NCBI GenBank assembly: GCA_963812755.1
Contig: CAWEWK010000005.1
Span: forward strand, 343,075 to 407,074
Source of the DNA: an uncultured Gemmatimonadales bacterium
GTDB taxonomy: Bacteria; Gemmatimonadota; Gemmatimonadetes; Gemmatimonadales; GWC2-71-9
DNA length: 64,000 nt
Direction: 5' to 3'
The position numbers and the translations under genes were made by a program. Positions 40,537 to 57,454 of this stretch are shown in pieces. The notes beneath the pieces are model-generated. The model ran no database searches. It was not told the origin of the DNA and saw nothing but the letters and a program-made list of their open reading frames with translations. Positions within the stretch are counted from its first letter, which is position 1. The number at the start of each line of letters is the position of its first letter.

Positions 40537-40749
40537 ATGGAATCAACTGATCGTCAACGCTGGGCGCGGGTACCGCCCGGCCAGGCATGGAAACACCCGG
40601 GTCTGCCTGTCGATTGGGTAAGGGTTCTTGGTGAGCATCCGGAAGGGGATGAGGCGCTCCCTGGCTACGTCTGGCTGGACATGCCGGGGAAGGTGCGGCA
40701 TGTCGGCGAGCACGAGCTGGAGTTCACGGACGAGCGGCCGGCGGTCTGA
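40537..40749 (+). CDS. Hypothetical protein
   Basis: 70-aa ORF. Confidence 0.35.
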   Translation: MESTDRQRWARVPPGQAWKHPGLPVDWVRVLGEHPEGDEALPGYVWLDMPGKVRHVGEHELEFTDERPAV

Positions 40750-40767
40750 TCCCTTTGCTGACTACGC

Positions 40768-40935
40768 TCGACAGACGGCGTACCGGCCCATAGTTCAATC
40801 CCTACGACCCCCGACAAAGGCACACCCGGCGAAAGCGCGGGCCGAAAGCCACGGGTCCTTGCCTCCTCCGCGACGCCGCCTTACGCCCAGCCCCGACGCC
40901 ACGAAGGATCCACGACCGCCAGCCCAGTGGAGATC
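40768..40935 (+). promoter_or_regulatory. Promoter plus structured leader, copy P1 (degenerate; no ligase upstream)
   Basis: TCGACA(40768)-N17-TAGTTC(40791), then CGACAAAGGCACACCCGGCGAAAGCGCGGGCCGAAAGCCACGGGTCC...GACGCCACGAAGGATCCACGACCGCC. ATG of the next ORF at 40938. Confidence 0.6.
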
Positions 40936-40937
40936 CC

Positions 40938-41623
40938 ATGGACAGGAACGCTGCCGCCGAGGCCGAATATCAGCTGCAGAAGATTCTCACCGTGGAAGCA
41001 TCAAAGCGGACCTTCGCCCTACCCTGGCTATCGGAAAGCGATCGCTGGAAGGAACTCGTTTTTGCATTGTTCACGAGCGCAGTGACTACCCAGAAGAGCA
41101 CCTCCGGGAGATCGTCGATAATCTGTACGATCTTGGACTGCTAAGAATCGACCTGTTAGCCGAAGTGAGCATCCCTAAACTGCAATCCGAGCCCGTCGAT
41201 CGTCTAAGCGCCCACTTTCTCGCCTTTCTTCAAGAGCACGGTTTTTCCCAACAGGAAAGTGAACGTCTCCTGACCATAGTATCGGAAGCTGCGAGTGCAC
41301 TGTCGCAGCAGTTCGATGGCAAGATTCAAAAATACCTCCGCAAGTATGGGGAACTCATGTTGAAAGAAGTTCCCGCTCTATTTCACTTCACGACAATCAA
41401 CAGCGATCAGATCGGGCACGCATTTACGTACTGGTTTCAGAATGTGCTCAATATGCCTCTGTCGTTGGTAGACTCGAACATCGTTGCTTTCTGCCAGGAC
41501 AATGGATTCGAGGTCGCAAATCTGATTGCTGCTGCCGACCGCCTTGACGTGAATCTCGCTCTCCTGGATGACCTGGTATACCTGAAGCTCAAGACTCAGG
41601 AGGCCGACCTAGCGCGAGCATAG
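40938..41623 (+). CDS. Hypothetical protein (weak HhH-GPD/glycosylase-like pattern), frame break near 41060-41090
   Basis: MDRNAAAE...SESDRWKELVFALFT in one frame, SDYPEEHLREIVDNLYDLGLL...VDSNIVAF... in another. Lower-GC patch. Confidence 0.45.
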
Positions 41624-41807
41624 ATTCTCTGACCCATCGACGAGATCGAGCACCATATTTGACTCTCGTGTTGCACAAGAACTCAGGAGGCTCAATGGCT
41701 CCGAAATTCTCAGGATCTCCACAAAATCGGATTCCTGCTCAACCATCCCGCTCGCACACAATCGGAGGGGCGGCCGTCTTGAACTAGATCTGCTCACGGT
41801 CGGAGAG

Positions 41808-42794
41808 ATGCTAGAAGCGGAGCGTCTTGTAGGAACCGCAAAGGCAGCTGGCCTCTTCCAGCCTGGTAGCGGCGGGCAATACGCATGGGGGCCCAAAGGC
41901 GAAGGCAATGTTCTACTACCTCTCACTCGAGGCGGTGTAGTAGATATCGATTGGCTGAACACACTCATGTCTGTTAAGGCGACAACCCCGGAGGCTGCTG
42001 CACTCTTATACGCCGGCGGCAAGGTCGCTTGGGCAGTATCACACGGAATACTTAAACGGTCTATCGGCGTGACTTGGGGTCACATCAAAGCGGCGTTCCC
42101 AAAAGACGAAACGATGGCTGCCGCACTTGCCATTGAGTACGGCGTAAAACCTTGGAAGTTTGCCGACCTTCTGCATCCTGATCTTGTGAAAGCAGCAGAC
42201 CGTCTTCTGGCGGACTTCAAGATAGCGAAAGTCAACAAACCCGCTCCTCAACCCCTGAAGAGGCCAGCATCACCGCCTCGGATTCTACTTAGGCAGCCAA
42301 GGCTGACTCCTGTTGTGCGGCAGGTACCCCAAAGGCCGAACGAAGCTTGGAAGAGCGGGCTTCGGCAGTCGCAGGACATGCAACAGCGTCAGCTGCAGCG
42401 GTCAATCCGGGATGCTTCAGATCGCGCTCACCAGCGGTTCATGCAGCAGAGCCAACAGGCAGCGCAGACCATGCACAAGCATGCGAGGGATTTCATGCAG
42501 CAGCAGATGCACAGGACACACGCAGCCACGGTGCCTTCAAGAAGCCGCCCATTCGATAGCCCGGCATTCCCGCGCTCCCCGTTTGGAGGGACTTCGCACG
42601 GTGGGGGTACCGCGTCGCCTCGTATCGGTCCCATACATCGTACTGGCATTCATGGGACGGGACACACCATGCCTCATGAGCGCCAGAGGCCGCACGGATC
42701 TTTCTTCACGTTTCGGGATCTCGACGTCGATCGTCGTGGCCACACCATTCCGGGCCCGTTCCGCGGCACGGAAATCACCCGCCACCGATACTGA
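41808..42794 (+). CDS. Hypothetical protein with a Gln/His-rich C-terminal half
   Basis: 328-aa ORF. No family recognised. Confidence 0.45.
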   Translation: MLEAERLVGTAKAAGLFQPGSGGQYAWGPKGEGNVLLPLTRGGVVDIDWLNTLMSVKATTPEAAALLYAGGKVAWAVSHGILKRSIGVTWGHIKAAFPKDETMAAALAIEYGVKPWKFADLLHPDLVKAADRLLADFKIAKVNKPAPQPLKRPASPPRILLRQPRLTPVVRQVPQRPNEAWKSGLRQSQDMQQRQLQRSIRDASDRAHQRFMQQSQQAAQTMHKHARDFMQQQMHRTHAATVPSRSRPFDSPAFPRSPFGGTSHGGGTASPRIGPIHRTGIHGTGHTMPHERQRPHGSFFTFRDLDVDRRGHTIPGPFRGTEITRHRY

Positions 42795-42844
42795 GAAATC
42801 CCTGTATTCGCTCCCATTTAAAGACAGATTGCCAACCCCGCAGC

Positions 42845-42977
42845 CATCTAGCCGTTTGTCTTCCGCTAGCCTAGACTAACCAGTAACGGCCCGCCTTAGG
42901 ACTCGGGCCGGAACCGTGTGACCCCTCGTCGTGGAGAGGCCAGCCGGCAGCTTTCGCGCTGCCCGGAGCCGCCACGA
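42845..42977 (+). repeat. Ligase-upstream module U, copy a
   Basis: CATCTAGCC(42845)...CCTAGACT(42870)...CCCTCGTCGTGGAGAGGCCAGCCGGCAGCtttcgcGCTGCCCGGAGCCGCCACGA, then the ATG. Confidence 0.8.
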
Positions 42978-43613
42978 ATGAGCCCGCGCACCACAGGACC
43001 CTTCCACCGTTGAGCCGATCGTCCCGGTATCGGGCTCACCCCCGATGAACGACCCCCAATGGCTCTACGAGCCCAAGTCGATGGCTGGCGGGGAATACTC
43101 TACCTCAGCGGTCGGGAGTGCTATATCCGCTCCAAGCGGGGGAATCTGCTACGTCGGTTCGCGGAGCTCGCCGAGCAGGTCAGATCCGAGATGTCGGTGA
43201 GTGATGCCATCTTGGACGGCGAGGTCGTGGCGCTCGATGACGAGGGGCGCATGAACTTCCGTGCCCTCCAACACGGCCGCGGGTGGCTGCACTACGCCGC
43301 CTTTGACGTGCTCTGGCTCCACGGGAAGGACCTGAGAGCCCAGCCGCTCACCCGGCGGAAGCGGCGCCTGGAGGGTCTCATTCCGAGGACCACTCCAACG
43401 CTCTCTCGGGTGCTCGCTGTGGAGGAGTACGGGCGGGAGTTGTTCGAGGCAGCCCAGAGGCTTGACTTGGAGGGCATCGTGGCGAAGCGAAAGCGCGACT
43501 CCTATTCGCGGCAGACTACCTGGTACAAGGTGAAGAATCCGGCGTATACACAGACGGAGGGGCGAGGAGACCTGTTCTATAAGCCTCGTTCACCTGCCCG
43601 GAAGTTGTCTTGA
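42978..43613 (+). pseudogene. OB-less ATP-dependent DNA ligase (nucleotidyltransferase domain only), copy L1, at least 2 frame breaks
   Basis: The ATG frame stops after 11 codons. VEPIVPVSGSPPMNDPQWLYEPK is in a second frame and VDGWRGILYL...LDGEVVAL...AFDVLWLHG...EGIVAKRK...WYKVKN...* in a third (motifs I, III, IIIa, IV, V). Confidence 0.8.
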
Positions 43614-43781
43614 CAAGCTCTGTACCGGTCCGTATCTCACTTCTGCCATCCCTCGACAAAGGCACACCCGGCGAAAGCCGGGGCCGCAAAGCCACGGGTC
43701 CTCGCCGCCCTCCGCGACGCCGCACGGTACTTCCGCCTGACGCCACAAAGGACCCACGACCGCTGAGCTGCCGAAGGGTGG
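43610..43781 (+). promoter_or_regulatory. Promoter plus structured leader, copy P2 (best preserved)
   Basis: TTGACA(43610, containing the ligase TGA)-N17-TATCTC(43633). CCCGGC-GAAA-GCCGGG hairpin, CGCAAAGCC, GGGTCC...GGACCC helix. CCATCCCTCG (43647) is complementary to CGAAGGGTGG (43772) in 9 of 10 positions. Confidence 0.65.
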
Positions 43782-43840
43782 CTAGGTCTGTCCGCTCATT
43801 TCGTAAACCTTTCAAGACAGCCTCTTCCCACGGGGTCCTT

Positions 43841-44435
43841 ATGCATCCGGCACGGCGCTTTGTTCCGCTCACACTCGCAGTATTCGTCCTAAGCTGTCAG
43901 GATGGCAATGGTCCTACTCCTGCCGAAAGCGCGCCCGTGGCGGGGCAACCTTCGGCGGCACAGATTGTCGACCGAACCCGCTTTTTCGACGGATTCCTCG
44001 TCCACCACACACCACAGTTGACCTTTACCGTAGGCCTGGTTGATCCCCTGGAAGCTCTCCCAGAGTGCGGCGGCACCGGCGAACTTGTCGAAACTGATAC
44101 CAGAGGCTTTGACCAGAAAGTGTTCACACCACCGGGTCCCATCAGACAGGTTCGACGCTTCACGGGAACCATCGCCCTTTACGATGTCCCACTCCTTCCA
44201 GAGGGAGGACTTGTGCAACCTGATCGGCCACCTCGTTGGAACCGGTCCAGGCACCTTTACTAGCACCGACAACAGCCTAACGGGTGTGGGCCCGGGCACG
44301 AACGCGTTCGGCTTCATGGCCAATGCTATTCTGACTCTGACTGATGGCAGCAAAGCGAAGTTCAGGGCCATCGTGCGGTTCGTTGGCGAGGATCTCATTG
44401 TCGAAGATCTCACGGTGACCCCGATCGGCAACTGA
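43841..44435 (+). CDS. Lipoprotein of unknown function, frame break near 44190-44215
   Basis: MHPARRFVPLTLAVFVLSCQDG lipobox. The C-terminal half (…GHLVGTGPGTFTSTDNSLTG…DLTVTPIGN*) is in track ORF 44040..44435. Confidence 0.55.
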
Positions 44436-44542
44436 ACCAAGCGGGATCCGTCGCCTCACTTCACGCTCTAAGCCGCACAAAATGAGTCGGGGGTGGCGCT
44501 CGCCACCCCCCCTTGGCGGACTCTTCGGTAGCTTTTTCTACA

Positions 44543-44660
44543 CATCTAGACTGCTTTTCAGTACCAGCCTATAGTCTGATTAGCGGCCTCTCGGCCGCGC
44601 CGTCAGCCCTCGTCGTGGAGAGGTAGTCGGCAGCATTGTCGCTGCCCCGGAGCCGCCACG
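44543..44660 (+). repeat. Ligase-upstream module U, copy b
   Basis: CATCTAGAC(44543)...CCTATAGTCT...CGTCAGCCCTCGTCGTGGAGAGGTAGTCGGCAGCattgtcGCTGCCCCGGAGCCGCCACG. Confidence 0.8.
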
Positions 44661-45094
44661 ATGAGCGCGCGTACCAAAGCACTTCCCACCTCGAGCCGAT
44701 CCTCGTGGTCACGGGCTCACCCCCGCTGCATGATCCCAACTGGATCTATGAGCCTAATTTCGACGGCTGGCGTGGAACCTTGTATCTGGATAGGCACTCC
44801 TCCTACATCCGCTCCAAGAGGGGGAACGTGCTACGCCGGTTCTGGGAGCTGGCCGGGCAGGTCAGGGCGGAGCTAGGTGTGAGAGACGCCGTTCTGGACG
44901 GTGAGGTGGTGGCACTCGATGACGAAGGCCGAATGTCCTTTAATGCTCTTCAAGTCGGGCGCGGATGGCTGCACTCCGTCGCCTTCGACCTGCTGTGGCT
45001 GAACGGACGAGACATGCGGGCTGAGCCGCTCTCACGGCGGAAGCGCCGATTGGAGGGACTGATCCCAACCAACAATGCGACCGTCTCACGCTGA
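44661..45094 (+). pseudogene. ATP-dependent DNA ligase fragment, copy L2 (frame break after the ATG; truncated after about 150 aa)
   Basis: The ATG at 44661 is out of frame with the body EPILVVTGSPPLHDPNWIYEPNFDGWRGTLYL... Motif I reads NFDG instead of KFDG. Ends ...LIPTNNATVSR* without motifs IV and V. Confidence 0.78.
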
Positions 45095-45228
45095 GATCTC
45101 TGCCGAAGCTCGGGCCGCTGCCTACGAAGGTCCGTTTGACAGACTCATCTGGCTACTGCCAGGCCACCCACCACGGGCGATCGACCTCCGGCTAGAGTCG
45201 GCCGCAGCCTGATAACGAAACCTTTCGG

Positions 45229-45801
45229 CTAGTCGTTGGTCCGAAAGAGGTAGACGATCTGTGCACGGCGCGTCGGGTGATAGGAGCAGTGGTAGCGGAT
45301 GACCTCTTCGCGCAGTGGGTCCAAACCCGATTCTCCCTCAGCCGGCGGCAGTTCGCCAAGCGCTTCAAGGAAGGGTCTCGCTCGGGCTGCTTCTCGCTGG
45401 ATGATCTCATCAGGAGGGATGGTGACGTCGCAGGTCTCCTCGTCCTCCCACTCCCCGTACCGGTCGAGTCGCTTCACATAGATCAACAAATCCGGACTGA
45501 CCTGTACGGCCTCCAGAGCGGCGAGCATGCAGATGCCCTCGAGAACCAATGGCTGAGACGCTGCCTCTATCGCGTTGCCGAGCTCACCGCGTTTCAGGTG
45601 GGGAAGGAAGGTCCCTTGGTTCTTGTGGATGAAGTCATCCAGGCTCAGGAGAGTGCCGCCGAGAGCTCCATACAGGTGACGTGCGATTGTCGTCTTACCG
45701 CTCCCGTGGATTCCGTCGACGCCGATGGTGGCTGCAGCAGGGAAGGATGATCGCAGGCGGGCAACGAGGGCTTGAGGGCTGTTCACTTCGTACGCGGTCA
45801 T
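45229..45801 (-). CDS. P-loop NTPase/kinase-like protein
   Basis: Walker A GVDGIHGSGKTT. 190 aa, apparently intact. Confidence 0.6.
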   Translation of the reverse strand: MTAYEVNSPQALVARLRSSFPAAATIGVDGIHGSGKTTIARHLYGALGGTLLSLDDFIHKNQGTFLPHLKRGELGNAIEAASQPLVLEGICMLAALEAVQVSPDLLIYVKRLDRYGEWEDEETCDVTIPPDEIIQREAARARPFLEALGELPPAEGESGLDPLREEVIRYHCSYHPTRRAQIVYLFRTND

Positions 45802-46365
45802 CTCTTTGCCGGGCCAGACTCATGCTCCTGCTGGGCATTGAGTGCCGATTCGAGACCCGCTCCCGCCGTCAATGCCTCTCTAAAGCCGATGAGGCTGACG
45901 GGCAACCCGCCTCCAATAGTCCCGTAGGCGCGGCTTTAGCAATCGGGCATCCTTTGGCATACAGCAAGAATAGCGGGGTCATTCCATAGGCGAGCGGGGC
46001 GGCCAGCATCGGCGCCCCCCGTGGTGTGTGTGCGGATTAGGAGGTGGGCGACGGCGGAGGCGGTTGGTAGGGTGTTTCCTTCCGGGCGATCAGCGCGGCG
46101 GCCACGTCGTCACGGTGACACATCTGGACAAACACGATCGCCTTTGCACGCCCGCCACGCTCGAGAACGGTCAACGGACTCGCCATGACAGCGCAGAAAG
46201 AGATCCGGACGATGTCCCTGTGGCGATAATGCTCCAGTGTTCTTTACGCACGGGGGTGAGTCCTAGCGCTTCCTCGTCAAGGACTCCAGACTTAAAGCAG
46301 GCCCAAGGCGCCTGCGCGCATGGCGCGGCCCGCCAACCAACGGGCTCGTAACGCTGGGGATTTCT

Positions 46366-46737
46366 ATGTTTGCCCGTCGCGACACGCTGGTGCAAGCCCT
46401 GAACGACCTCGAAACTGGTGGCCTTCCCAACGCCGAAATAATCGTAGTGAGCCGCGGTTGGTGGGAGAGCCTGTCCACCTCTGAACAGACCACCTTCCGC
46501 ACTCGCGCCGATCGGGTGGGTGTCACGCTGAACGTCGACGACCAGCTGTCCGCACACTATGTCGAGGTGCGGGCGGGCCGAGCGATCAGCGGCTGTCAGG
46601 CGAGCACCCGATCTAGCAGAGTTGCGTGTCAGGCCAGGGGCTACAGTCCTAACTTCCGCACGCATCGCCGCCCAGACGTGCCGCGGCTCGGCGGCGAGGT
46701 CGCCACCACAGCTCACGGTACAATTCAGTATACTTGA
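46366..46737 (+). CDS. Hypothetical protein
   Basis: ORF. The first 80 or so aa look protein-like; the C-terminal part is low-complexity and may be out of frame. Confidence 0.3.
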   Translation: MFARRDTLVQALNDLETGGLPNAEIIVVSRGWWESLSTSEQTTFRTRADRVGVTLNVDDQLSAHYVEVRAGRAISGCQASTRSSRVACQARGYSPNFRTHRRPDVPRLGGEVATTAHGTIQYT

Positions 46738-46761
46738 AGAGTCCTCGACCCAGGCCTGCAG

Positions 46762-46992
46762 TTGAATCCCGTCTTGTACAAGGGCTTCACCATCACGGCG
46801 CGCACGTTCCAGATACGTGGCTGCGGACGCTGGACCCTTGATCTCTTGATCGGCCGCCACACTGACTTGCGGGCCTACAGCGGCCCTAGCACCTACCCCA
46901 CAGAGGAATCGGCTATCACGGGATGTTGTGACTTCGGCCGGCGCATCATCGATGGCCAAGTGTCGAATTGCTCAGTCGATGACTTGTCGTGA
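46762..46992 (+). CDS. Small hypothetical protein
   Basis: 76-aa ORF YKGFTITARTFQIRGCGRWTLDLLIGRH...FGRRIIDG. Recalls a small conserved family, but I cannot name it. Confidence 0.4.
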   Translation: MNPVLYKGFTITARTFQIRGCGRWTLDLLIGRHTDLRAYSGPSTYPTEESAITGCCDFGRRIIDGQVSNCSVDDLS

Positions 46993-47613
46993 GACTGGGG
47001 CGCGGCCGTTTTCCGACAGACCGCGCAAGCCGCCTTCAAAATGCCGGAGACCCACCAGGGAGGGGTGCGTTGCAGAGGGGAGATGCGGCACGCGGGCGGC
47101 ACAGCCGGGCGGGTGAATGCGGGATTACTGGTCCCCAGGTGGTCCCTCTAGTGCCGTGAGCGAGGCTAACTCTGATCGGCGGCTGCGAGCGCGAGCAGGT
47201 CAGGGCTATTCAGGAGTTCGGATGCCATAGTCCGGAGCATCGACACCGCTGGGCCCGGGTCCCGCTCAGCCATGCGGGGAAATACCCCGGTCTCCCCGAC
47301 CACTGGTGCCGCGTCTATGACGCCCACCCGGATCCGTCGATCGACACCCTGGCCGGTCATGTCTGGATCGATGCCCCCCAGAAGCTGCTCCATGTGCGGT
47401 CTGACTGTCTGGAGTTCCGAGACTCGCCGCCCGACGAAAGCGAGTGACGGACGAGAACTCGCCCTGCTACGCTCGCTCTGTCAGGTCGAGGCGTTGACCT
47501 TTGGGTCCGAGGATACATCGCCTGGCCGCGCGGATGAACTCCACTCCGTTCATCTCCACTCTCCCTCGCTGCTGGCGACGACAATCGGCGTATCCCGATG
47601 GAGGTTCAGAGCC

Positions 47614-48258
47614 TTACGACAAGAACCACGCGAGGCTAAGGAGCAGAACCGCGGCGAGCAACAAACCAAGGCTGCTCCACACTGCGAACCGCCTGTACCC
47701 TGCGGTATCCGGGGCTAGGATCGGCTGCCGCCGCTTCGCGAGGCGGGTGGCTTGGGTGTCGAGCCAGCCGAGAAGTAGCAACGCGGCGATAGCTGCGGTC
47801 AGGCGACCTGGCAGATGCTCCGGCCCGCCCCCGATGGCGAACATCAGGCCCACACCGAAAATGAGGACGAACCCTGCCACGAAGGCTATGAACACTCCTA
47901 GCGGTCCCTCCATAGAACGGCTGGCCGTATCTACCGCCCGCAAGAGTGGCTCATTGCCGTGTGGCTCAGCTGCTGCGGTGCCCTTGCTGATCCCCTGAGC
48001 TATCGCGTTCTCAATTAGACCCCGCACCGGCGCGGGCAGGCTCATACCCTCCAAGGTCCGCCCATTCAAGCTCACCGAGGTTTGCAGCATTCCAAGCACA
48101 TTTTTGCCAGCGCTCCCGCCCTGGAGTACGTCGGGAATACCGTCCTTGTCCTTGTCCTGGAACTGGTCAAGCATCACCTGATAGGCCTTTCGAACCTCTG
48201 GCGCCATGGCCTCGGGGCTATCGTACTCTTGGCCGTTGAAGATGATGCGGGTCGTCAT
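47614..48258 (-). CDS. Membrane protein with an N-terminal RIIFNGQEYDSPEAM domain
   Basis: 214 aa. Soluble N-terminus plus C-terminal TM helices. Paralogue of 48346..49088. Confidence 0.55.
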   Translation of the reverse strand: MTTRIIFNGQEYDSPEAMAPEVRKAYQVMLDQFQDKDKDGIPDVLQGGSAGKNVLGMLQTSVSLNGRTLEGMSLPAPVRGLIENAIAQGISKGTAAAEPHGNEPLLRAVDTASRSMEGPLGVFIAFVAGFVLIFGVGLMFAIGGGPEHLPGRLTAAIAALLLLGWLDTQATRLAKRRQPILAPDTAGYRRFAVWSSLGLLLAAVLLLSLAWFLS

Positions 48259-48345
48259 GAGTGTCTCCCGACTGGGACGGGTTAGAGCTCGATCTCGTAC
48301 CTGCTGGCGATTTCCCTATAGTGGACCGCTCGGAGAGAGCCAGGG

Positions 48346-49088
48346 CTACTTTTTCAGCCTCATCTCGAGTGAGATGTACATCCCAGCGATGCAGGCGAGC
48401 GCCACGAGCACACCGATCCCGACAAAGAGGCCCCCTGCTTGGCTTTGGGAACTCGCGTCCATGTGCGAGATCATCCAGACACCCCCCGCAACGACGCCCC
48501 CCGCACCCACACCCAACAGAATCTGGAGCACCCGTGCAAGGGCATGTTCACTCGTGTCGAGTGCCCGCAGGAAGCCTTCGTTGCGGTGCGCCTGAGCCGG
48601 TGTGGTTTGAGCGTCCGGGGCTGAGTCTCGCGGGGCACTGGTCTCCGGGGACTTCTGCTTCTTCAGCATCAGCCAGATCGCGATACCAATCCCCGCGATG
48701 CCGGTGAGCACCACCGCCACCAGGAACCCGCGCCCGATGTAGAAGCCGCCGCCTCCCTGGCGTCGGAAACCCGCCTCCAGCTGCCAGACCATCCACCCAC
48801 CCCCCACAATGATCCCTCCAACCGCCACGCCCATCAGAATCAGGAGCCCCCGATTTTCAGGGCATGTTGAGTCCTGCCGATCGCCCGCATGAAATCCCCG
48901 TAGGGGTGCGCTCGAACCGAGCCGGCTCGCGCGCCCTGCCCCGAATCTCCCGTGGTACTGATCTCGCGCAATCCCTGCTGATTGGCCTCCAACTTGGCAA
49001 GCGCTTCTTGGTACGCTTTGCGTACAGCTTGCGGCATAGCCTCTGGGCTGTCATACTCTTGGCCGTTAAAGATGATGCGGGTTGCCAT
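48346..49088 (-). CDS. Paralogous membrane protein with a duplicated TM module, frame break at a G-run near 48840
   Basis: MATRIIFNGQEYDSPEAMPQAVRKAYQ... ends ...HALKIGGS*, but LLILMGVAVGGIIVGGGW continues in the adjacent frame. The module F(M/L)RA..T..HAL plus 2 TM helices occurs twice. Confidence 0.55.
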
Positions 49089-49427
49089 AAAGAGTCCCTC
49101 GCCCGTAGAGAGCGACACGGCACTTGCTGAAGTCGCAGTGAGATCGAGCCCCCGAACTGCAGAACGCGCACGATGGAGGGGGTTCTCTACAGAATAGCGC
49201 TGCGGCGCAAGAGCGCTACCCGCTCCGCCGCGATTGCTATGCGGCGCGGGCGGCCACGAGACCACGGAGCTGCCGTGCTGCCTCGGTGGCGCGGCCCAAG
49301 ACCGCAGGGCAGCTGATTGCCGCGGTCGGGCAACTCCTGCACATGGCCAGCCAGGTCAGTGATACCGTTAGCCTTGGTGCGCCGGGCGCCACTGATAGCC
49401 TGGCGACCGGTAGGGTTCTCCCTCGCA

Positions 49428-49555
49428 CATCTAGACGGCCGCCCGGTAGGGGCGTAGAATCTCCCTTAGCGACCCAGTAGCAGGCCGCGTCACCGTCTTA
49501 GCCCTCGTCGTGGAGAGGCAGCCGGCATCTATTGCGCTGCCCGGAGCCACCACGA
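49428..49555 (+). repeat. Ligase-upstream module U, copy c
   Basis: CATCTAGAC(49428)...CGTAGAATCT...GCCCTCGTCGTGGAGAGGCAGCCGGCATCtattgcGCTGCCCGGAGCCACCACGA. Confidence 0.8.
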
Positions 49556-50144
49556 ATGAGCCCCCGCACCACCAAAACCCTTCCCCTCGTCGAGCCGGTC
49601 GTCCCGGCGCTGGGCTCACCCCCGCTGCACGATTCGAAGTGGATCTACAAACCAAAGTTCGATGGCTGGCGTGGGACGCTCTATCTGGACGGCCACTCCA
49701 CGTACATCCGCTCGAAGCGGGGCAATGTGCTACGCAGGTTCTGGGAGCTGGCTGGGCGGGTAAGAGCGGAGCTGGGGGTGAAGGACGCCATTCTAAGACG
49801 GCGAGGTGGTGGCGCTCGATGACGAAGGCCGCATGTCCTTTAATGCTCTCCAAACTGGCCGGGGATGGCTGCACTACGTTGCCTTCGACTTGCTGTGGCT
49901 GAACGGACAGGACATGCGGGCTCAGCCGCTCACTCGGCGGAAGCGTCGATTGGGGGGACTGATCCCGACCAACAATGCGACCCTATCCCGGGTGCTCGCC
50001 GTGGAGGAGCACGGGCGGGAGTTGTTCGAGGCAGTGCAGCGGCTACGCGATCCCTACGCTCAGCAGACCGTGTGGTACAAAGTGAAGAACCCGGCCTACA
50101 CTCAGGCTGAGGGGCGAGGCGACCTGTTCCACAAGGCTCGCTGA
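49556..50144 (+). pseudogene. ATP-dependent DNA ligase, copy L3 (1-nt insertion near 49790; motif IV region deleted)
   Basis: MSPRTTKTLPLVEPVVPALGSPPLHDSKWIYKPKFDGWRGTLYLDG... is in frame from the ATG. A break at DAIL|DGEVVAL (ctaagacggc versus ctggacggc in L0). ...AVQRL-RDPYAQQTVWYKVKN lacks EGIVAKRK. Confidence 0.8.
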
Positions 50145-50167
50145 CGCCTCCTAGCCCGGACATTGTC

Positions 50168-50300
50168 TTGACAGCCTCCGTACCCGCCTGTAGTTCATCC
50201 TACCAACCCTCGACAAAGGAACACCCGGCGAAAGCCGGGGCCGCAAAAGTCTCGGGCTCCTCCTCCGCGACGCTACCTCCGACGCCACGAAGGACCTTAA
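50168..50300 (+). promoter_or_regulatory. Promoter plus structured leader, copy P3
   Basis: TTGACA(50168)-N17-TAGTTC(50191). CGACAAAGGAACACCCGGCGAAAGCCGGGGCCGCAAAAGTC...GACGCCACGAAGGACC. Confidence 0.6.
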
Positions 50301-50369
50301 GATCGCCGAACTGCGCCATGATGGTCTTCGACGGATAGACTCGCAACGCGTTGCGAAAGGAGATTTCCA

Positions 50370-50796
50370 ATGCCCATGCAAGCCGCAGCCACCGCACCGT
50401 TAACCGACAAGGATCGTGCTGATATCAAGGGGCTCAATCGCGCAATTCGACAAAGACATGCTGGCGCGAAGAGTGCCCGCCCTTGTCGGTCCTTACACGA
50501 AACACCGCCATCCTCATGCCGCCCCACGCACCCATGGTGCGCGGGCGGGCGGCGATCCGGCAGTTCTTCGAGGACTTCCCTAAGGTCACAGAGTTCACGC
50601 AGAAACCTGTTGAGATAGAGGGAGAGGGGACCTTGCGTTCCCATGGGGTACGTTCGAGATGGCAGTGCTTCCCGAGGGGGCAGCAGCGCCGGTGAGGGAC
50701 CGAGGTAAGGTGCTCGGCATCTTTCGTAAGCAACCCGACGGATCATGGCTCGTCGGTAGGGTTTGTTGGAATTCCGATCTAGCCCCGGTACCATAA
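50370..50796 (+). pseudogene. SnoaL/DUF4440-like (NTF2-fold) gene with several frame breaks
   Basis: MPMQAAATAPLTDKDRADIKGLNRAI / TAILMPPHAPMVRGRAAIRQFFEDFPKVTEFTQKPVEIEGEGTL / GKVLGIFRKQPDGSWLV..WNSD occur in different frames. Confidence 0.55.
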
Positions 50797-51671
50797 CTCC
50801 GGCCGAGAGCCCGGCAGAGCTTCTCGCACTGAGTTGTAAGACACATACCGGTGAGCACAACGGACGAGTCATGGCTACACGGTCACTGAAAGCCCCCCTG
50901 CCACTCGTCATCATGGAGGCCCTATGCCGGCGCCTGGCGCTACTTGTCTGTAGTCCTCCTGTCACTCTTCCCACGTCTGAAACTAGGAGGTCAGAAGCCC
51001 CATATCGAGACCCGCGTTCTCGTGTTCCCTTCGAACGGGTCGACACCCTGCGGAAACTACTGGAGGAGACTTAGTCAGTCCTGGCGGAAGCCAAGCGCCG
51101 TGGCGGGATCTTGGATGATGTATGGCTCGTCCATGCTCGGCGAGGAGAGTCAATGTAGTCAAGATGACTACCTGGAAATCCTGGCAAGTACTCGAGGAAA
51201 CGACTGTCGGGCTTACGCCGCCACCAGAAAGTTCTATCCGGACTCGGTCGACGAAGAAACTCAATCATCGATTCGCTGGGGTATTCCAAGGGCCTCCGCA
51301 TGTAGACAAGATTACCGGAAAATCGAGTAGCGTTCGGTTCTCGATGCTATAGCCAGCGTAACAGGTTGATTTTCGATGGGGTTTGGCGGGTCCCCGCTGC
51401 GAGAGGCGGCGGGGAAATGCGCCTGTGCAAATATCTGTGCGAACTTCCCCCATCATCCGGCACATTTCTGTACCTGCGCGCGTGCATCCTGCATACGTAA
51501 TCCCTGAATTCAGGGGGAAGCTGACGAAATGTTCGCCAGCCCCTAGCCAATCGGCTGAGCATGGAGCGTATCACTGGTCCGTTCCAGAGCCTCGTGCTAG
51601 CGTAGTAGAGTACCTCCCGAAGTATCTTCCCGCTGCCCGACAGCGCTGCCCGCCTCCAGGCCGCACCGGCC

Positions 51672-52087
51672 GACCGCCACCTGTTTGAGCGCGAGCTGGG
51701 CCAGGGCGGCATGGCGACCGTCACCTGGCGCGCGACGTCAAGCACGACCGAGAGGTGGCCCTTAAGGTTCTCCATCCGGAGCTAGCCGCTAGTCTGGGGC
51801 CGGAGCGCTTTCTCCGGGAGATCCGCACGACGGCTCGCCTGCAGCACCCGCATATCCCGTCCGTCCTCGATTCCGGCGAGGCGGCAGGCATGCTCTGGTA
51901 TACCAGGCCGTACGTCGAGGGCGAGGGCCGACGCGACCGGCTGCGGCGCGAGGCCCAACTGCCGGTCGATGAGGCGATTCGGATCGCGCGGGAGGTGGGG
52001 CTCGCCCTCGACTACGCCCACCGGCACGGAGTGGTGCACCGCGATAGCAGGAGATTCTTCCAGGAGTTCGAGATAATCCGATCGTAA
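51672..52087 (+). pseudogene. Ser/Thr protein kinase N-terminal fragment
   Basis: DRHLFERELGQGGMATV, a break, then VALKVLHPELAASLGPERFLREIRTTARLQHPHI...YAHRHGVVHRD followed by unrelated residues and a stop. Confidence 0.7.
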
Positions 52088-52744
52088 CGGGTATGGATTT
52101 TTACGCTAGGAGGAAAGGCGAGCGGGGGGCGCCGATCCTGGCCGCCCCCGTGAGGTGTGCGGGATGAGGTGGGGAGTCAGGGCGTGGTGGCGCTCTCGGT
52201 GAGGTAGACGCCCCGGTGTAGGCGGACGGCGGCGCGGCTCAAGACCACCTCTCTAGGACGCTCTCGGTATAGGCTTTCACGTCCGCCCGGTGTGCGGACC
52301 ATAGGAGATCGAGCGCGCCCGCGGGACCGTGAGCCGCGACCAGCTCCCGTCGCCTCCCCCGCATGTCGGCGGGTACTTGGTACTCGTGAACCTCGACCAA
52401 CCCGGCCGCATAGGCGGCGAGCATGGCGGGCCAGGCGCCGCCGGCAATGTCCTGGAGCGTTGCCTCTTGGGGCGCTGGCACGCCAGTGGTTCAACGCGTG
52501 CTCCCACATTCCGACCTTGGGGGCGCGTACCCATTCGGTGAGGTGGTCGCCCGGCTCAAGCGCGTTAGTCAAGTAATTTATTGCCGGCTAGGGCCCGGCG
52601 CAGGACGGGCACCGCCTCGGCGTAGCGCCCGAGCGCGACGGAGGTCGCGCCCAAGTACTCGTTGGTGAGCGGGAATGCGGTGTCCATCGCCACCGTGTTC
52701 CGCAGCTAGGATCGCCTCACCGGAGTCGCACCAGTCAGGGGGCG

Positions 52745-55274
52745 CTACCGCACCGTCGGTGTGAAAAGCGTGTCGTGCGCCGCCACTGCGCGTCGGCGCA
52801 TCGCCGCGACGTCCTCCTGCATGCGTGCCGCAATCCGCTGGAACTGCGGATGCGCCCGTATGCCGTCGAAAAAAGGGTCGCGCGCGAGGACTCGCGGATC
52901 CTTGAATCCTCGCTGGTAGGCGTGCTCCAGCCACTCCAACGCATCGGAAAGGTCACCGCGTACTGCGCTGATCGCCGCGATCTCGAGCGATCGGTCGAAC
53001 ATTTCGTTCCCGGCAGCGAGATCCTTCCGGGCCTGGGCGAGTGCCGCGTCCCCCATGGAGTCGGCACGCGCCCGCGCGCCGCGCTGAGCGAGTGCCCAGG
53101 CGTAGAGTGTCCGGAACGTCTCGTGGAGGAAAAGCGGCCGCGTGTCGGGGGACGCTTCGGCGAGAGGCTTGACGAGTGCTTCAGCATCCAGCGCCCGGGT
53201 GACGACCGCAAGCTCGGCGAGGTACGCTAGTCCTTCCTGATTCTCCGGGTCGCGCGCCACGATGCGGCGCGCGCGCTCCATCGCCGACGTGTCGCGCCCC
53301 CGCTTCAGGTCCAACATGGACAGCGCAGTCTCGAGTCGGACGTTGTCGGGGAATCTCCGGGTGGCGCGGACGAGAAAGCGTTCGGAGGCCAGATCATCCC
53401 CGAGCCGGACGAGCGGCACGCTCACGTGGTAATAGGTGACCGGGCTGGCCGGATCGAGAGGCACGGCCCGCATCGCCCAATAGAGCGACTCGTCATAGTT
53501 GCCCAGGTAATCCTCGTTGATCGACAGGTCCATCATCGCCCAGGCGTAATTCGGATCGAGCTGGAGTGCCTTGCGGTACGAGATGCGCCCTGCGGCGAGG
53601 CGCCCGCTAACGCTCTGGGTGCCGCCAAGCGCGAAATGGGCTTGTGCCAGTTCCGGATCGGCCGCGACCGCCTTCTTCGCAGCAACAAGACCGGAGTCGA
53701 AATAGGCGGGCCCGCGGCTGTATCCCAGGAACATGAAGAGGCGGGCGAGTTCGGCGTACGCTGCGGCAAAGGTGGAGTCCCGTGCAACGGCCTGGCGCAG
53801 AATCTGATGCCCTCGAGGTTCTGCGTGGGATGAACCGGTCCGTGTCGCCGGCCCGCATGTACAACTCGTATGCAGCAAGATCCACGGTCGGCGGCCGTCC
53901 TGCGCGGCGCGCCTCCGCCGGGGTGAGTGAAGTCTGCAGGGCGGTCGTGATCCGCTGCGCGATGTCGCGTTGCACGCCAAAGACGTCTGCGAGCTCCCTG
54001 TCGTACTGCTCCGTCCAGATCGTCTGCCGTGACCGGGCGTCGATGAGCTGTACTCCTACCCGTGCCCGATTCCCTCGACCCGGACGGTTCCCTCGACGAT
54101 GCTTCCTACGCCAAGATCCTTCACCATACGTGGTATGCGGTCGGTGGCGTCGGTGTAGGAGGTTAACGTGTTGCGGCCCAGCACCCGCAACGCGGAGAGT
54201 CTGGAGAGCTGCCCGGTGATCTCCTCCGTCATCCCCGCTGCGAAGTAGCTCCGGGCCGAGTCGGCCGACAGGTTTTCAAAGGGCAACACCGCGACCACGT
54301 ACTTCTGGTCCAGCGGTGCGGCCATCGCAACTTCAACTGGCGCATCGGGGCCCCGCGTAGCGAACCACGCTACGCCGAGAAGAAGGGCCAAGCCCAGCGC
54401 GACCGCCAGCCACGCGTGCGAGCGGGGACGTGATGCGACGGCTGCCGGTGCCGTCTGGTGCGCTCCTCAGCGCCTCGGTGAACTTCCCTACAGTGTCGAA
54501 CCGATCCGCGGGCGTCTTCGCGAGCGCGCGGGCGACGGCCCCGGCTACAGCGGACGGGACCGCGGGACGCAGCGGAGTGATGGAGCGAGGCTCGGAAATC
54601 AAATGCTGGTGAATGATGCTCTGTGGCGTCGGTCCAGTGAACGGAGGCTCGCCGGCGAGCATTTCGAACAGCACGCACGCCAGGCTGTACAGATCGCTGC
54701 GGCCGTCTGTGTCACGGTTGCCCGCCGCTTGCTCCGGACTCATGTACGTCGGGGTGCCAAGCGACATTCCTGTTCCCGTGAGGCGCTCAGTTCCCGCCGC
54801 CGACAGCGCCCGGGCAATACCAAAAGCGGCCACGACCGCGTGTCCCGCTTCGAGCAGGATGTTCTCCGGCTTGATGTCCCGGTGCACAACGCCGTGCGCA
54901 TGAGCGTAGGACAGTGCGTAGCCTACCTCGTGCGTGATGCGCAGCGCGTCGTCAAGGGGCAACTGCTTCTCACGGTCTAGCCGGGCGCGGAGCGACTCGC
55001 CCTCAACGAGCGGCATCACGAAGAACAGGGCGCCGTCTAGGTCGCCCGAGTCATAAACTGGGAGTATGTGCGGATGGCGGAGACGGCTGGCGATCTCGAT
55101 CTCACGGAGGAAACGCTCGGAGCCGAGGGAATAGGCGACTTCGGGACGGAGCAGCTTGAGCGCCACCCTGCGCTGGTGCCGGACATCGTCCGCCAGGTAG
55201 ACCTCGCCCATTCCGCCCATGCCGAGCAGCGAGTCTATCTGATAATGCCGGAGCGCATGACCTTTCTGCAACAT
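52745..55274 (-). pseudogene. Ser/Thr kinase - TM - periplasmic domain - TPR protein, at least 4 frame breaks
   Basis: Kinase domain 54333..55274 (HRDIKPEN; the DFG position reads AFG). TM and FENLS-type domain in ORF 54056..54391. Linker in ORF 53607..53975. TPR repeats in ORF 52745..53980. Each is in a different frame. Confidence 0.75.
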
Positions 55275-55772
55275 AGTAAGCTCAAAATGCTGCCGCTTCC
55301 TCCTCACCGCCACTGCGGCGTGCCACGCAGGCCAGACGGGGCGACTTGAGTGGTCAGCAGAGTCGTGGTTCGAGCCCAGGAGGGGCAATCAAACCCGGTA
55401 ACCGATGCTGTTCAGGAGTACCAGCAGGATGCGGCTTCTCCTCACCCTTCTGCCCCTACAATGCCGTGCTGACTCTTCAGGGCGACCAGGCAGTGTCGGC
55501 GAGCGGGCAGGGCAATTGTTATGCCCCACAACTCGTCTTCACTCAACGTGGCAGGCCCAGCGGTGAGGCATGGGGAAGACGGAGGAGACCTAGGCCGCGC
55601 TGATTGCGGAACTGTCCTAACCAACAATGGGTGGGCAGGAGCGCATTGAGCTACACTTCGGCTTAACGGACGGTTCGGACCAATGCCCTGAGCGACGTTT
55701 AACAGATGAGGGCGAACGGTGCGCATACATGCGCGCTCAAAGCCCGTCTCACCTTCACCCATGGAGGCTCTC

Positions 55773-56296
55773 ATGAAGCCAATCGTCATTAGCAGTCTGA
55801 CAGCAGCGCTCCTGCCCATATCGGCCGGAATGCTGTTTCTTCTAGCCGCTTGCCAAGATCCGGCGTCGGTCTCGCAACCGACTGACGCCCGGCTCTCGCA
55901 CAGGCGCCTGCGACCGGGAACGGCCAGAAGTTCGTGCTCCCGATCGACGAGGAGGACGTAGTGAACTGCGGACCGGGCCAAATCCTCACCGTGCATTTCT
56001 TCGGCTGGATTCAGTTCCGGGTCTTTGACGAGCCCGTCAAGCGGAACGTCGAGCTGGACGTCTTCCATGTGGCCGGCATATATACCAACACGGCCGGCAA
56101 GACCTACAGGTTTAATGATGTGGGACCAGATCACTACTATCTCGACGATGGGAACCTCATCATCGCGGCTTCCGGTCGAATCGGCGGGGGAAACATTGGG
56201 CACGTCGTGACGAACCTTACGACTGGCGAAACCGTGTTCGTCGCCGGAAAGGAGTTTGAAAGCGCTGATGCCCTTGCCTGTGAAGCCCTCACGTGA
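55773..56296 (+). CDS. Lipoprotein of unknown function, frame break near 55900-55935
   Basis: MKPIVISSLTAALLPISAGMLFLLAACQD lipobox in one frame. The body (ORF 55934..56296) is in another. Confidence 0.5.
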
Positions 56297-56367
56297 GCGG
56301 TGTTCCTCCCTGGTCTAGTGGACGAAAGCCGGGGGTCCTTGGCTGATCTGGCCGACCCGCATTTGGC

Positions 56368-56486
56368 CATCTAGACTAACTCGAAGGCCCGGCTAATCCC
56401 CGGGCCCCAAGCCAGTTCGAGCCTCTTCGTGGAGAGGCAGCCGGCAGCTCTGCGCTGCCCGGAGCCGCCACTAATGAGCCCGCGCC
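56368..56486 (+). repeat. Ligase-upstream module U, copy d, with only the first 4 or so ligase codons
   Basis: CATCTAGACT(56368)...CCTCTTCGTGGAGAGGCAGCCGGCAGCtctgcGCTGCCCGGAGCCGCCACTAATGAGCCCGCGCC, then homology ends. Confidence 0.75.
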
Positions 56487-56490
56487 GAAT

Positions 56491-56544
56491 CTCTCCAAAC
56501 CGTTCACCATGGATCGCTTGCTCGCCGAAGTAGCGCGTTTGTGA
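56491..56544 (+). pseudogene. 18-codon C-terminal fragment of a response regulator receiver
   Basis: Reads LSKPFTMDRLLAEVARL*. Occupies the place of the deleted ligase body between U(d) and P4. Confidence 0.5.
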
Positions 56545-56581
56545 GGAGGTAGTAGCCGCTCAATCCGCCGAAACTGTTGCC

Positions 56582-56665
56582 TTGACAGGAAGTGTACCCG
56601 CCCGTAAATCGATCCTACGATCTCCTCGATAAAGGCACGCCCGACGAAAGCCGGGGTCGCGGTGT
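56582..56665 (+). promoter_or_regulatory. Promoter plus leader, copy P4 (leader truncated/diverged after the GAAA hairpin)
   Basis: TTGACA(56582)-N17-TAAATC(56605). CTCGATAAAGGCACGCCCGACGAAAGCCGGGGTCGC. Confidence 0.55.
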
Positions 56666-56764
56666 TCTGTCGGGATATATCCTGCCAGTCAGATTCGTGC
56701 TATTTGTCCGTGTAGGTGCGCCGGGGGAACCCGGCATTGTTGGCAAAAGGAACAGGAGGTTACC

Positions 56765-57076
56765 ATGGCGATTGCACTCTACCAGGAGTTTCCCGGCTTC
56801 ACGGAGCAACAGTACGAGGCGGTGCTGCGGGAGCTGAACCTCGGCGGCCGTCTGGCGGAGGGAGGGGTGTTTCACTGCGCCGGCCCGATGGAAGGGGGTG
56901 CCGGCTGGCGCGTCTTTGACGTCTGGGAGTCGCAGGCCGATTTCGACCGCTTCCGCCGCGAGAAGCTCGACGCAGCGATGCAGAAGATTGGGGCGGAGAT
57001 GGCCCCGCGGGTTACCTCCTGGACCGTACACAACGTGCTCCTTGCTGAGCGTGCGCCCGCGTGGTCCCACTCATAG
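56765..57076 (+). CDS. Small hypothetical protein (intact cargo ORF behind P4)
   Basis: 103-aa ORF preceded by AGGAGG 6 nt upstream of the ATG. Confidence 0.55.
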   Translation: MAIALYQEFPGFTEQQYEAVLRELNLGGRLAEGGVFHCAGPMEGGAGWRVFDVWESQADFDRFRREKLDAAMQKIGAEMAPRVTSWTVHNVLLAERAPAWSHS

Positions 57077-57178
57077 CCCCAGCCCGGCGCGGACATGGGT
57101 TGAAAAGCACGGCCCAGCTCAAGCCGATTTGGCAATAGCTGCCAGTGTGCGGGGGGCAATCCAAAAGCCCCCCGCGTC

Positions 57179-57350
57179 CATCTAGACGACTCCTTCGAAC
57201 CAACCTAGACTCTGAATACCGGCCCCAATAGCCGCCAGCCCGTCAGCCCTCGTCGTGGAGAGGCAGCCGGCAACTCTACGCTGACCCGGAGCCGTCCGCG
57301 ATGAGTTCACGCACCAAAGCACTTCCACCCGTTGGTTGTACCCCCGCTGA
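57179..57350 (+). repeat. Ligase-upstream module U, copy e, plus a degenerate ligase start (L5)
   Basis: CATCTAGAC(57179)...CCTAGACT(57204)...CGTCAGCCCTCGTCGTGGAGAGGCAGCCGGCAAC...ATG(57301)AGTTCACGCACCAAAGCACTTCC..ACCCCCGCTG, then diverges. Confidence 0.7.
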
Positions 57351-57454
57351 TCGTGCCGAAGGCGGGCACGACCGCCGATACTCGGGTTCACCTCCTACTC
57401 GCCATAGGGAACCTATTATGAGTCAAGAATCGAGGCACTCACACCGGCCGCCCG

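Follow-up and report, generated by a model that had tools for sequence, protein, structure and literature searches.

The window analyzed here is a stretch of 64,000 nucleotides (nt) from the genome of an uncultured Gemmatimonadales bacterium (contig CAWEWK010000005.1, positions 343,075 to 407,074). Between approximately 30.2 and 58.6 kb it contains an array of diverged repeats of three kinds, interspersed with unrelated genes: segment U, which lies upstream of a ligase-like gene; L, the ligase-like gene itself; and segment P, which holds a promoter and a riboswitch. The array is probably the interior of a genomic island in this Gemmatimonadales genome. The repeat copies are designated M0 to M5, with a solitary P segment designated P0; loci elsewhere are numbered from L001 and proteins from P0001. 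The U, L, and P segments of the window are as follows.

30669-30932, plus strand: M0 L, ligase residues 12-99 only, without U and without P; closest to the intact protein P0001 (97% amino acid identity)
40767-40921, plus strand: P0, degenerate promoter (TCGACA) and decayed riboswitch-like segment (nhmmer, 78.5 bits)
42845-42994, plus strand: M1 U, -10 element TAGACT at 42872-42877; predicted hairpin covering the Shine-Dalgarno (SD) sequence GGAG at 42965-42968 and the ATG at 42978
42978-43613, plus strand: M1 L, full-length, lineage B; stop after 11 codons and frameshift at motif I (KxDG)
43596-43776, plus strand: M1 P, TTGACA at 43610-43615, 17-nt spacer, TATCTC at 43633-43638, aptamer at 43652-43776
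44543-44678, plus strand: M2 U, TAGACT, 17-nt spacer, TATAGT, and leader
44661-45136, plus strand: M2 L, residues 4-160, then truncated; catalytic Lys changed to Asn (EPNFDGWR)
49428-49572, plus strand: M3 U, TAGACG, 17-nt spacer, TAGAAT, and leader
49556-50144, plus strand: M3 L, lineage A; 1-nt insertion near 49795 and 30-nt deletion removing motif IV (DLEGIVAKRK)
50154-50319, plus strand: M3 P, TTGACA at 50168-50173 and aptamer at 50209-50319, with P1 broken and P1a mutated
56347-56489, plus strand: M4 U, including the first ~4 ligase codons
From 56474, plus strand: M4 L, the first ~4 ligase codons, a stump behind U
56568-56726, plus strand: M4 P, TTGACA at 56582-56587 and aptamer at 56625-56726, with the P2 arm replaced
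57179-57334, plus strand: M5, U and ~12 ligase codons, then unrelated sequence

Self-BLASTN of the window together with a repeat search returned long diverged repeats, all on the same strand. M1 (42913-43771) aligns with M3 (49492-50314) at 74% identity (E 7e-155), M2 (44593-45090) with M3 (49483-49990) at 82%, and M0 (30672-30929) with M3 (49592-49850) at 87%, and shorter matches to U or P were found at 56422-56485, 56576-56660, 57179-57334, and 40767-40919. An nhmmer profile of U detected the four U copies listed for M1 to M4 and a fifth at 57179-57317, all on the plus strand, and no sixth anywhere in the window. The P profile matched only four positions in the window (40812-40921, 43652-43774, 50209-50314, and 56625-56722), each with a promoter 40-45 nt upstream. 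Ligase coding sequence was located by tblastn, using an intact family member as query, at 30669-30932, 43006-43589, 44666-45136, and 49556-50141. For the P segments of M1, M3, and M4, the first open reading frame (ORF) starts 183-231 nt past the -35 element and 42-67 nt past the aptamer; cargo on the minus strand is also present (45229-49265). By self-BLASTN the intervals between modules share no DNA, save internal duplications within the cargo (48152-48258/48982-49088 and 48346-48645/48655-48965) and an inverted kinase fragment (51695-52044/55227-54877).

A preliminary description of the window had placed five U, six L, and four P segments on the plus strand, and self-BLAST and the profiles recovered them at those positions; its estimate of ~0.9 kb for a full module is correct. 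Its six ligases agree with the homology searches as sites, with the qualification that those at 56474 and 57301 consist only of a start codon plus ~4 and ~12 homologous codons, respectively. Its view that the DNA between modules is unrelated holds from one interval to the next, the duplications near 48.2-49.1 kb and the inverted kinase fragment being exceptions. A spacing of 150-190 nt from P to the first ORF had also been given: a same-strand ORF does follow three of the P segments, at the 183-231 nt from the -35 element reported above.

The OB-less ligase-like gene and its leader

L encodes a LigD-type nucleotidyltransferase domain of ~205 amino acids that lacks the oligonucleotide-binding (OB) fold. 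A frameshift-corrected reconstruction was used as the family query and found more than 1,300 homologs, most of them 204-207 amino acids long and containing PF01068 only, and 26 aligned members show little or no variation in motifs I, III, IV, and V. The match to TIGR02779 covers positions 10-186 of 302 and scores 130 bits against a cut-off of 227.75, and the nearest solved structure is the Mycobacterium tuberculosis LigD ligase domain (PDB 1vs0), with which residues 9-178 of the 310-residue chain align. In both comparisons the L proteins end at about residue 205, with no C-terminal OB fold or motif VI region. The L family therefore resembles LigD and other non-homologous end joining ligases (TIGR02779; PDB 1vs0 and 6nhx) in its PF01068 nucleotidyltransferase signature and in the retention of motifs I (KxDGxR), III, IV (EGIVAK), and V (WYKVK). 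It differs from them in length (205 versus ~300-310 amino acids), in the absence of the OB domain and motif VI, in scores under the curated cut-offs, and in its genomic neighbors. In classical DNA ligases the OB domain is required for self-adenylylation, and for this reason the OB-less L proteins may not ligate alone.

In GTDB genomes the family is represented by at least 534 loci, in Gemmatimonadales, Acidobacteriota, Nitrospira, and others. A single L copy per locus is found in ~80 of the 83 genome loci examined. Over these 83 loci the only frequent neighbors are response regulators (17 loci) and Ser/Thr kinases (15 loci), with a single-domain response regulator directly upstream on the same strand in eight ligase loci; an integrase adjoins the ligase in one of the 83. 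Ku was absent from the scanned representatives of the neighbor clusters at the 83 loci, no search having been aimed at Ku. A phage origin of the ligase was considered, as a split terminase adjoins the ligase in L002, and was rejected as a general explanation: IMG/VR contains only distant ligase relatives with at most 46% identity, and the core of the riboswitch described below has no exact match in viral contigs.

Every ligase copy in the window is defective, being truncated, frameshifted, or without a motif. The annotated 184-amino acid ORF of M1 (43059-43613; P0046) covers part of the gene, and in M2 the ATG and the body are in different frames, the body lying in a 152-amino acid ORF (44636-45094; P0081). 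Both the window and the contig of a sister strain look like long-read metagenome-assembled genome (MAG) assemblies, and single frameshifts may consequently be sequencing errors; the truncations, the Lys to Asn change of M2, and the motif IV deletion of M3 are seen in both assemblies. In the sister strain the M3 gene with this deletion is an open 195-amino acid ORF, and the 1-nt insertion occurs in the window only.

Segment U is the ligase gene's own promoter followed by a conserved leader that would sequester the ribosome-binding site and that is kept across the family. It begins with a sigma-70-like promoter, and its predicted fold pairs the SD sequence (GGAG) and the start codon. In more than 35 loci the leader takes the form CCCUCCUCGUGGGGAGGG, CUCC, a variable covarying hairpin, GGAGCC, the start codon, and CCCACGA. 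Leader copies lie at 42885-42995, 44583-44678, 49468-49573, 56400-56491, and 57219-57318 in the window, and elsewhere upstream of the ligase in L005 (5461), L012 (5463), and L016-L031. In loci with a response regulator ahead of the ligase, it is the whole response regulator-ligase operon that has the leader in front. RNAalifold applied to 24 loci predicted an anti-SD:SD helix flanked in the model by a hairpin 1 and an inner hairpin, with compensatory changes at 6 of 13 pairs. An alternative long-range pairing between UCGUGGG and CCCACGA is also predicted. No Rfam 15 family matches the leader, a candidate new cis-regulatory RNA. The U copies share no upstream motif other than the -35 element.

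The promoter and c-di-GMP-I-GGC riboswitch

Segment P is a sigma-70-type promoter followed by a c-di-GMP-I-GGC (cyclic di-guanosine monophosphate) riboswitch aptamer (Rfam RF03167), with one promoter of the form TTGACA-N17-TAnnnC per P. At 59.3 bits (E 1.9e-11; gathering score 59) and without a flagged non-canonical pair, the M1 aptamer (43652-43776) is the sole P in the window to reach the gathering score. The aptamers of M3 (33.1 bits, E 6e-4, mismatches flagged) and M4 (28.5 bits, E 0.013) fall below it, and P0 (40812-40921), with changes in the P1a hairpin and in the 3' strand, has no Rfam match at E<=1. Judged by sequence, only the M1 P still looks like a working aptamer.

An exact 35-nt aptamer-core pattern with three two-fold degenerate positions was used to survey metagenome contigs, and identified 120 loci. 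Of 122 distinct riboswitch copies, 95 have a TTGAC element ~38-49 nt ahead of the aptamer. The first ORFs downstream fall into 60 unrelated sequence clusters and encode mainly lipobox or signal-peptide proteins, single-domain response regulators, Ser/Thr kinases, SnoaL-like proteins, proteases, and hydrolases; in related Gemmatimonadales the promoter and riboswitch precede more than 100 unrelated genes. Of 111 riboswitch copies, 9 (~8%) directly adjoin what is left of a ligase 3' coding end, and a ligase gene ends within 400 nt upstream of 6 of 103. Because the cargo is varied and a ligase is rarely upstream, P is a generic promoter and riboswitch leader of this lineage, and it is no part of the ligase module as such.

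The Gemmatimonadales copies resemble RF03167 (clan CL00126, GEMM-I) in the score of the M1 copy, which is at the threshold, and in their 5'-UTR position before genes for membrane, secreted, and signaling proteins; the copies in L001 and L003 score 62.6-63.6 bits. Many related copies also possess a terminator-like hairpin that re-uses the P1 3' strand and would compete with P1, and this hairpin is degenerate in M1. They differ from RF03167 in a conserved 45-60-nt insertion in the P2 arm (…GGGUCCUCGCCUCCUCCGCGACGCC…GACGCCACGAAGGACCC…), present at 43690-43760 in the window and in more than 100 copies; the GGGUCCU/AGGACCC pairing clashes with the Rfam P2 register. The copies were picked by an exact 35-nt core, so that little covariation is seen in P1a, and two alternative P2 pairings remain. 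A further difference is the decay of three of the four copies in the window; c-di-GMP is the putative ligand.

Homology between M1 and M3 continues unbroken over the ligase stop codon and the P promoter in the self-BLASTN alignment, and the same junction of L with P was found again in L176, L207, and L002. As this junction is common to the window copies and to other genomes, U-L-P is an old syntenic block, older than these copies, that was copied or moved whole.

The putative island border, related loci, and the probable origin of the array

To the left of ~29.7 kb the window contains housekeeping genes, encoding a molybdopterin oxidoreductase with NrfD, aminotransferases, and hemB, hemL, hemC, and hemE, followed by genes for PKD and RCC1 proteins. 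Two remnants lie between these genes and the array.

29891-30042, plus strand: integrase remnant of the tyrosine recombinase/phage type, ~51 C-terminal amino acids with one frameshift; HxxR box and catalytic Tyr region kept
30157-30196, plus strand: tRNA-Ala(TGC) 5' fragment, nt 2-41, ending in the anticodon stem

The integrase remnant was detected by tblastn with the integrase of L003 (PF00589, phrog_1), of which it matches residues 339-389 at 58-61% identity (E 7e-8). The tRNA fragment is identical at 40 of 40 positions to the intact tRNA-Ala of L003, where a fragment with an equal breakpoint occurs at 4080-4119; its Rfam tRNA score of 24.3 is under the gathering score. We regard it as a putative attachment (att) remnant and putative left border of the island. 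M0 starts ~450 bp to its right, and all modules in the window share its orientation. Across ~30 kb the G+C content drops from 0.65-0.69 on the left to 0.59-0.64 on the right, and the genes on the right are hypothetical, stress-related (YflT/DUF2382, DUF892, and Mn catalase), or involved in signaling. No intact tRNA was found in the window with ARAGORN, and no second tRNA-Ala or att copy in the window or between modules (word size 7, E<=1). Pfam scans of the ORFs at 30-64 kb identified no integrase, leaving the 51-amino acid remnant as the sole trace of a recombinase.

Two relatives, L003 and L001, retain more of this arrangement. On the 474-kb contig of L003 the gene order is intact tRNA-Ala, integrase (PF00589, phrog_1), two small ORFs, ligase, riboswitch, lipoprotein, riboswitch, and kinase, with the 5' tRNA fragment 3.5 kb to the left; a tRNA fragment accompanies an intact tRNA in L166 as well. 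In L001, two 49-nt direct repeats (7561-7609 and 9448-9496; 94% identical), each matching tRNA-Ala nt 31-75 in reverse complement, are spaced by 1,887 bp and enclose an integrase-less unit of riboswitch, lipoprotein, U, and intact ligase. This 1.89-kb unit looks like a cis-mobilizable element. The tRNA 5' and 3' fragments overlap at nt 31-41, in the anticodon loop, which would be the expected kind of crossover core. L001 also contains M1-type and M2-type U segments elsewhere, before other genes and with their own upstream flanks. Since L001 holds the two types separately, the paralogous blocks are older than its split from the window lineage.

In a tree of the ligase proteins M0, M2, and M3 group with P0001 and P0005 (lineage A), and M1 with P0002 and P0003 (lineage B). 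M1 is 74% identical to M3 in amino acid sequence and 84-85% identical to P0002 and P0003, and M0 is 97% identical to P0001. An M1-type U-L-P at 85.6% identity is found in L241 with unrelated upstream genes, an A-type U-L without P in a different neighborhood in L243, and several ligase fragments occur in L159, L187, and L150. The sister strain (L085, from a different sample record) is collinear with 39613-58566 of the window at 96.3% identity and has the same cargo order. Its divergence is mosaic (~8-10% at 40.2-44.0 kb, ~0% at 44.0-50.4 kb, and ~20% at 57.4-58.4 kb) and switches near 40.1, 44.0, 50.4, 52.0, 57.4, and 58.4 kb, several of these positions being close to P or U edges; the pattern suggests recombination without proving it. 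L084, from the same sample as L085, contains a response regulator, U, and an intact ligase 93% identical to M0 at the DNA level; it joins window sequence at 58566 and starts with the reverse complement of 30622-30666. A simple inversion linking L084 and the window at M0 is not supported, as only 45 nt match.

Beyond tRNA-Ala, an intact tRNA gene (Met, Pro, Leu, or Thr/Leu) is found 85-1400 nt upstream of the ligase on the same strand in L010, L011, L012, L017, L022, and L159. At least 5-6 of 33 ligase loci lie near a tRNA gene, for which the binomial P is ~1e-5 to 1e-6 if ~45-60 tRNA genes per 3.5-4 Mb are assumed. In L027 a tRNA-Arg with two extra 5'-fragment copies lies by the ligase locus, and in L022 and L017 the ligase is the sole non-housekeeping gene between tRNA-Met and the methyltransferase and MurB genes. 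These positions fit a ligase block that often persists where integrated DNA borders a tRNA gene.

We consider it probable that the region is a composite, decaying island linked to tRNA-Ala, containing paralogous U-L(-P) blocks of two lineages and eroded by deletions and illegitimate joins. The island would have been built at a tRNA-Ala attachment site, with site-specific integration there indicated for the island border and for relatives. The module would be an ordinary syntenic block, in which the U leader and the L gene are followed, directly past the ligase stop, by the P of whichever gene comes next, and blocks of two old ligase lineages, B (M1) and A (M0, M2, and M3), would have been gathered in one island. 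The U, L, and P repeats are plausible substrates for homologous exchange, and recombination may have taken place among them. Deletions and illegitimate joins at differing points, such as the fusion of the M4 U to a response-regulator tail, would then have eroded the array, the outcome being two full-length defective copies and four stumps amid unrelated genes. The order and mechanism of these accretion and erosion events are what we infer from the present arrangement.

Composite tRNA-linked islands formed by tandem accretion and decay are known, in the form of cis-mobilizable elements and integrative and conjugative elements (CIME/ICE) in streptococci, tycheposon-type islands in Prochlorococcus, and asn-tDNA hotspots in Klebsiella. 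The window resembles them in its border tRNA fragment and integrase remnant, its drop in G+C, and its shift in gene content; its relatives resemble them in the att-like tRNA-derived repeats around the integrase-less unit of L001, in the intact tRNA and integrase of L003, and in the differing content of the more distant L001, L241, and L243. The differences are that the window has one att copy and none between modules, that what recurs as a landmark is a ligase-like gene plus leader rather than att or an integrase, and that the remnant is a tRNA 5' half with the crossover in the anticodon arm. The array is best read as a decayed composite island, as ordinary biology without a new cassette mechanism. 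Several points weigh against this. Integration is documented for the border and not for each module, given the solitary att copy; neither an intact tRNA-Ala nor the island's right end lies in the window, from which an intact integrase is also absent; and the sister strain displays no cargo turnover. Some frameshifts may be long-read errors, in which case M1 could be less broken than it appears, and the mosaic divergence from the sister strain could be MAG consensus chimerism.

A less likely origin is serial site-specific accretion. An integrase would have inserted each unit at tRNA-Ala, the unit being either a P-cargo-U-L mini-element or the end nearest the tRNA of some larger element, and the array would be a tandem stack resembling CIME/ICE accretion whose internal att copies were lost later. 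The tRNA-derived direct repeats around the L001 unit speak for it, as do the equal breakpoints of the tRNA-Ala 5' fragments in the window and L003, the similar pattern at tRNA-Arg in L027, the ligases just downstream of varied tRNA genes in six loci, and the common orientation of the window modules and the tRNA fragment. It is opposed by the lack of any att fragment between modules; only 0-20 nt separate the ligase stop of M1 and M3 from the promoter that follows, too few for an att site. The shared L-P junction implies that U-L-P was copied as a block, and an integrase is very rarely beside the ligase.

A related idea is more doubtful still, namely that P-cargo-U-L units are att-bounded mobile cassettes captured in trans by a resident tyrosine integrase at tRNA genes. 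L001 would be the example, the ligase-like gene the hallmark terminal gene, and the window an old eroded stack. If true, this would constitute a new riboswitch-wired cassette system, and would explain why a ligase is found a short way downstream of tRNA genes with at least five different identities.

Equally improbable is a recent tandem or segmental duplication of one ligase locus in situ, followed by divergence and cargo insertion. The copies are indeed collinear, on one strand, and within 27 kb, the family is otherwise single-copy per locus, and M0, M2, and M3 form one clade. The copies are, however, only 74-87% identical to each other, whereas M1 and M0 reach 85% and 97% amino acid identity to intact genes on other contigs, and because copies are nearer to genes elsewhere than to the other lineage, recent duplication of one gene in situ is disfavored. 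The M1-type and M2-type U segments with their own flanks were already separate in L001, and the flanking cargo was not co-duplicated.

An active gene-cassette system, in which U or P hairpins serve as recombination sites and the ligase-like protein acts in cassette capture, is very improbable. Conserved and variable segments do alternate on one strand, as in integron arrays, U is structured and imperfectly palindromic, and ligases consisting of the nucleotidyltransferase domain only are associated with tRNA genes. Unlike an integron, the window has no IntI, attI, attC, or common Pc promoter; every cargo comes with a promoter and riboswitch of its own, and some cargo is on the opposite strand. 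In a scan of 29.5-59 kb, for which no dedicated attC model was used, the ends of the cargo showed no inverted repeats. Also against it are the defects of the ligases, the unchanged array of the sister strain, the covariation of U as expected of an RNA leader with an SD:anti-SD helix, and the more than 90% of P copies that are without a ligase. The integron/attC reading was rejected on these grounds, and an insertion sequence or transposon reading was rejected since the scanned ORFs include no transposase domain and no flanking or terminal inverted repeats were found. The ligase as an integration target with a fixed crossover was also rejected, because the truncation points differ (residues ~4, ~12, 99, and 160). 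Finally, an assembly artefact, with repeats arising from collapsed or chimeric strain variants in a MAG, might be suggested by the patchy divergence from L085 and the alternative junction in L084, and is scarcely credible, as the independent L085 assembly has the whole 19-kb array collinear at 96% and copies 74-87% identical are too diverged for collapsed repeats.

The preliminary description had found the layout less like simple gene duplication than like cassette arrays or serial accretion, and simple recent duplication is indeed disfavored by the identities to genes elsewhere. Its proposal of cassette arrays or accretion at a recombination hotspot survives as far as a recombination and integration hotspot is concerned, and fails for the module as the unit of capture: P is generic, U is the ligase's own leader, and no att lies between modules. 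It had seen no integrase, transposase, or attC-type site; the scans found neither of the latter two, and the integrase remnant and tRNA-Ala fragment had been missed. It had called for a synteny comparison to see whether cargo varies between fixed modules: the 96%-identical sister strain has an identical cargo order, and more distant relatives have other flanks.

More interesting leads than the array itself are the riboswitch regulon, the OB-less ligase family, and the L001 unit. The c-di-GMP-I-GGC riboswitch is an orphan variant that, with a stereotyped promoter, precedes more than 100 unrelated genes in soil Gemmatimonadales, including lipoprotein, secreted-protein, response-regulator, and kinase genes, and thereby offers a ready regulon for ligand identification. 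The large family of OB-less LigD-type nucleotidyltransferases, which may not act as ligases alone, has a conserved SD-sequestering leader matching no Rfam family and is enriched just downstream of tRNA genes. The att-bounded, integrase-less unit of L001 renders the mobile-cassette idea testable.

Cargo genes and other features of the window

The cargo genes and fragments associated with the modules are the following.

43841-44435, plus strand: cargo of the M1 P, lipoprotein gene (MHPARRFVPLTLAVFVLSC...), frameshifted in the window
50370-50618, plus strand: cargo of the M3 P, SnoaL_2/DUF4440-type gene, frameshift-truncated in the window; intact (141 amino acids) in L085
55934-56296, plus strand: truncated lipoprotein gene, N-terminus lost; L001 ortholog 88% identical in nucleotide sequence
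56491-56544, plus strand: response-regulator tail, LSKPFTMDRLLAEVARL and stop, behind the M4 U; homologous to L001 7667-7756
56765-57076, plus strand: cargo of the M4 P, 103-amino acid ORF with a weak ABM-fold match

The M1 cargo belongs to the largest riboswitch-cargo cluster (13 members), together with the ligase-adjacent cargo of L001 and L003. The truncated lipoprotein gene has no preceding P, and its L001 ortholog is led by a riboswitch. The join of the M4 U to the response-regulator tail is a deletion junction. The identification of the tail, made in the preliminary description, is weakly supported: LSKPFTMDRLLAEVARL matched response-regulator C-termini by tblastn with E values of 1e-4 to 0.08 in a very small search space. 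An ORF called glycosylase-like in the same description has no Pfam support.

Other response-regulator sequences are present in the window. A 42-bp unit in tandem duplicate (34312-34395, 95% identity) encodes ILVVDDEPRLSF, a response-regulator N-terminus, and further fragments lie on the minus strand at 34475-34832 and 47559-47708. The kinase-TPR gene at 52745-55388 on the minus strand appears to be split into ORFs at 54333-55388, 54056-54391, and 52745-53980, and the Ser/Thr kinase fragment at 51755-52087 on the plus strand is an inverted partial copy (65%) of its kinase domain. A REP-like (repetitive extragenic palindrome) GC-rich imperfect palindrome of 24-26 nt, GGGGGCGCCGATGCTGGCCGCCCC, occurs at 38280-38303, 45996-46021, and 52123-52148, in each case intergenic, with one copy inverted. 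A 235-bp repeat (32982-33216 and 62056-62290, 77%) lies inside two YflT/DUF2382-type stress genes at the ends of the low-GC region. Left of the island border, the PKD-domain protein gene at 26915-27465 contains a 285-bp duplication, and the RCC1-repeat protein gene at 28595-29650, just beside the border, has 150-bp periodic repeats; an RCC1 protein also neighbors the ligase in L011.

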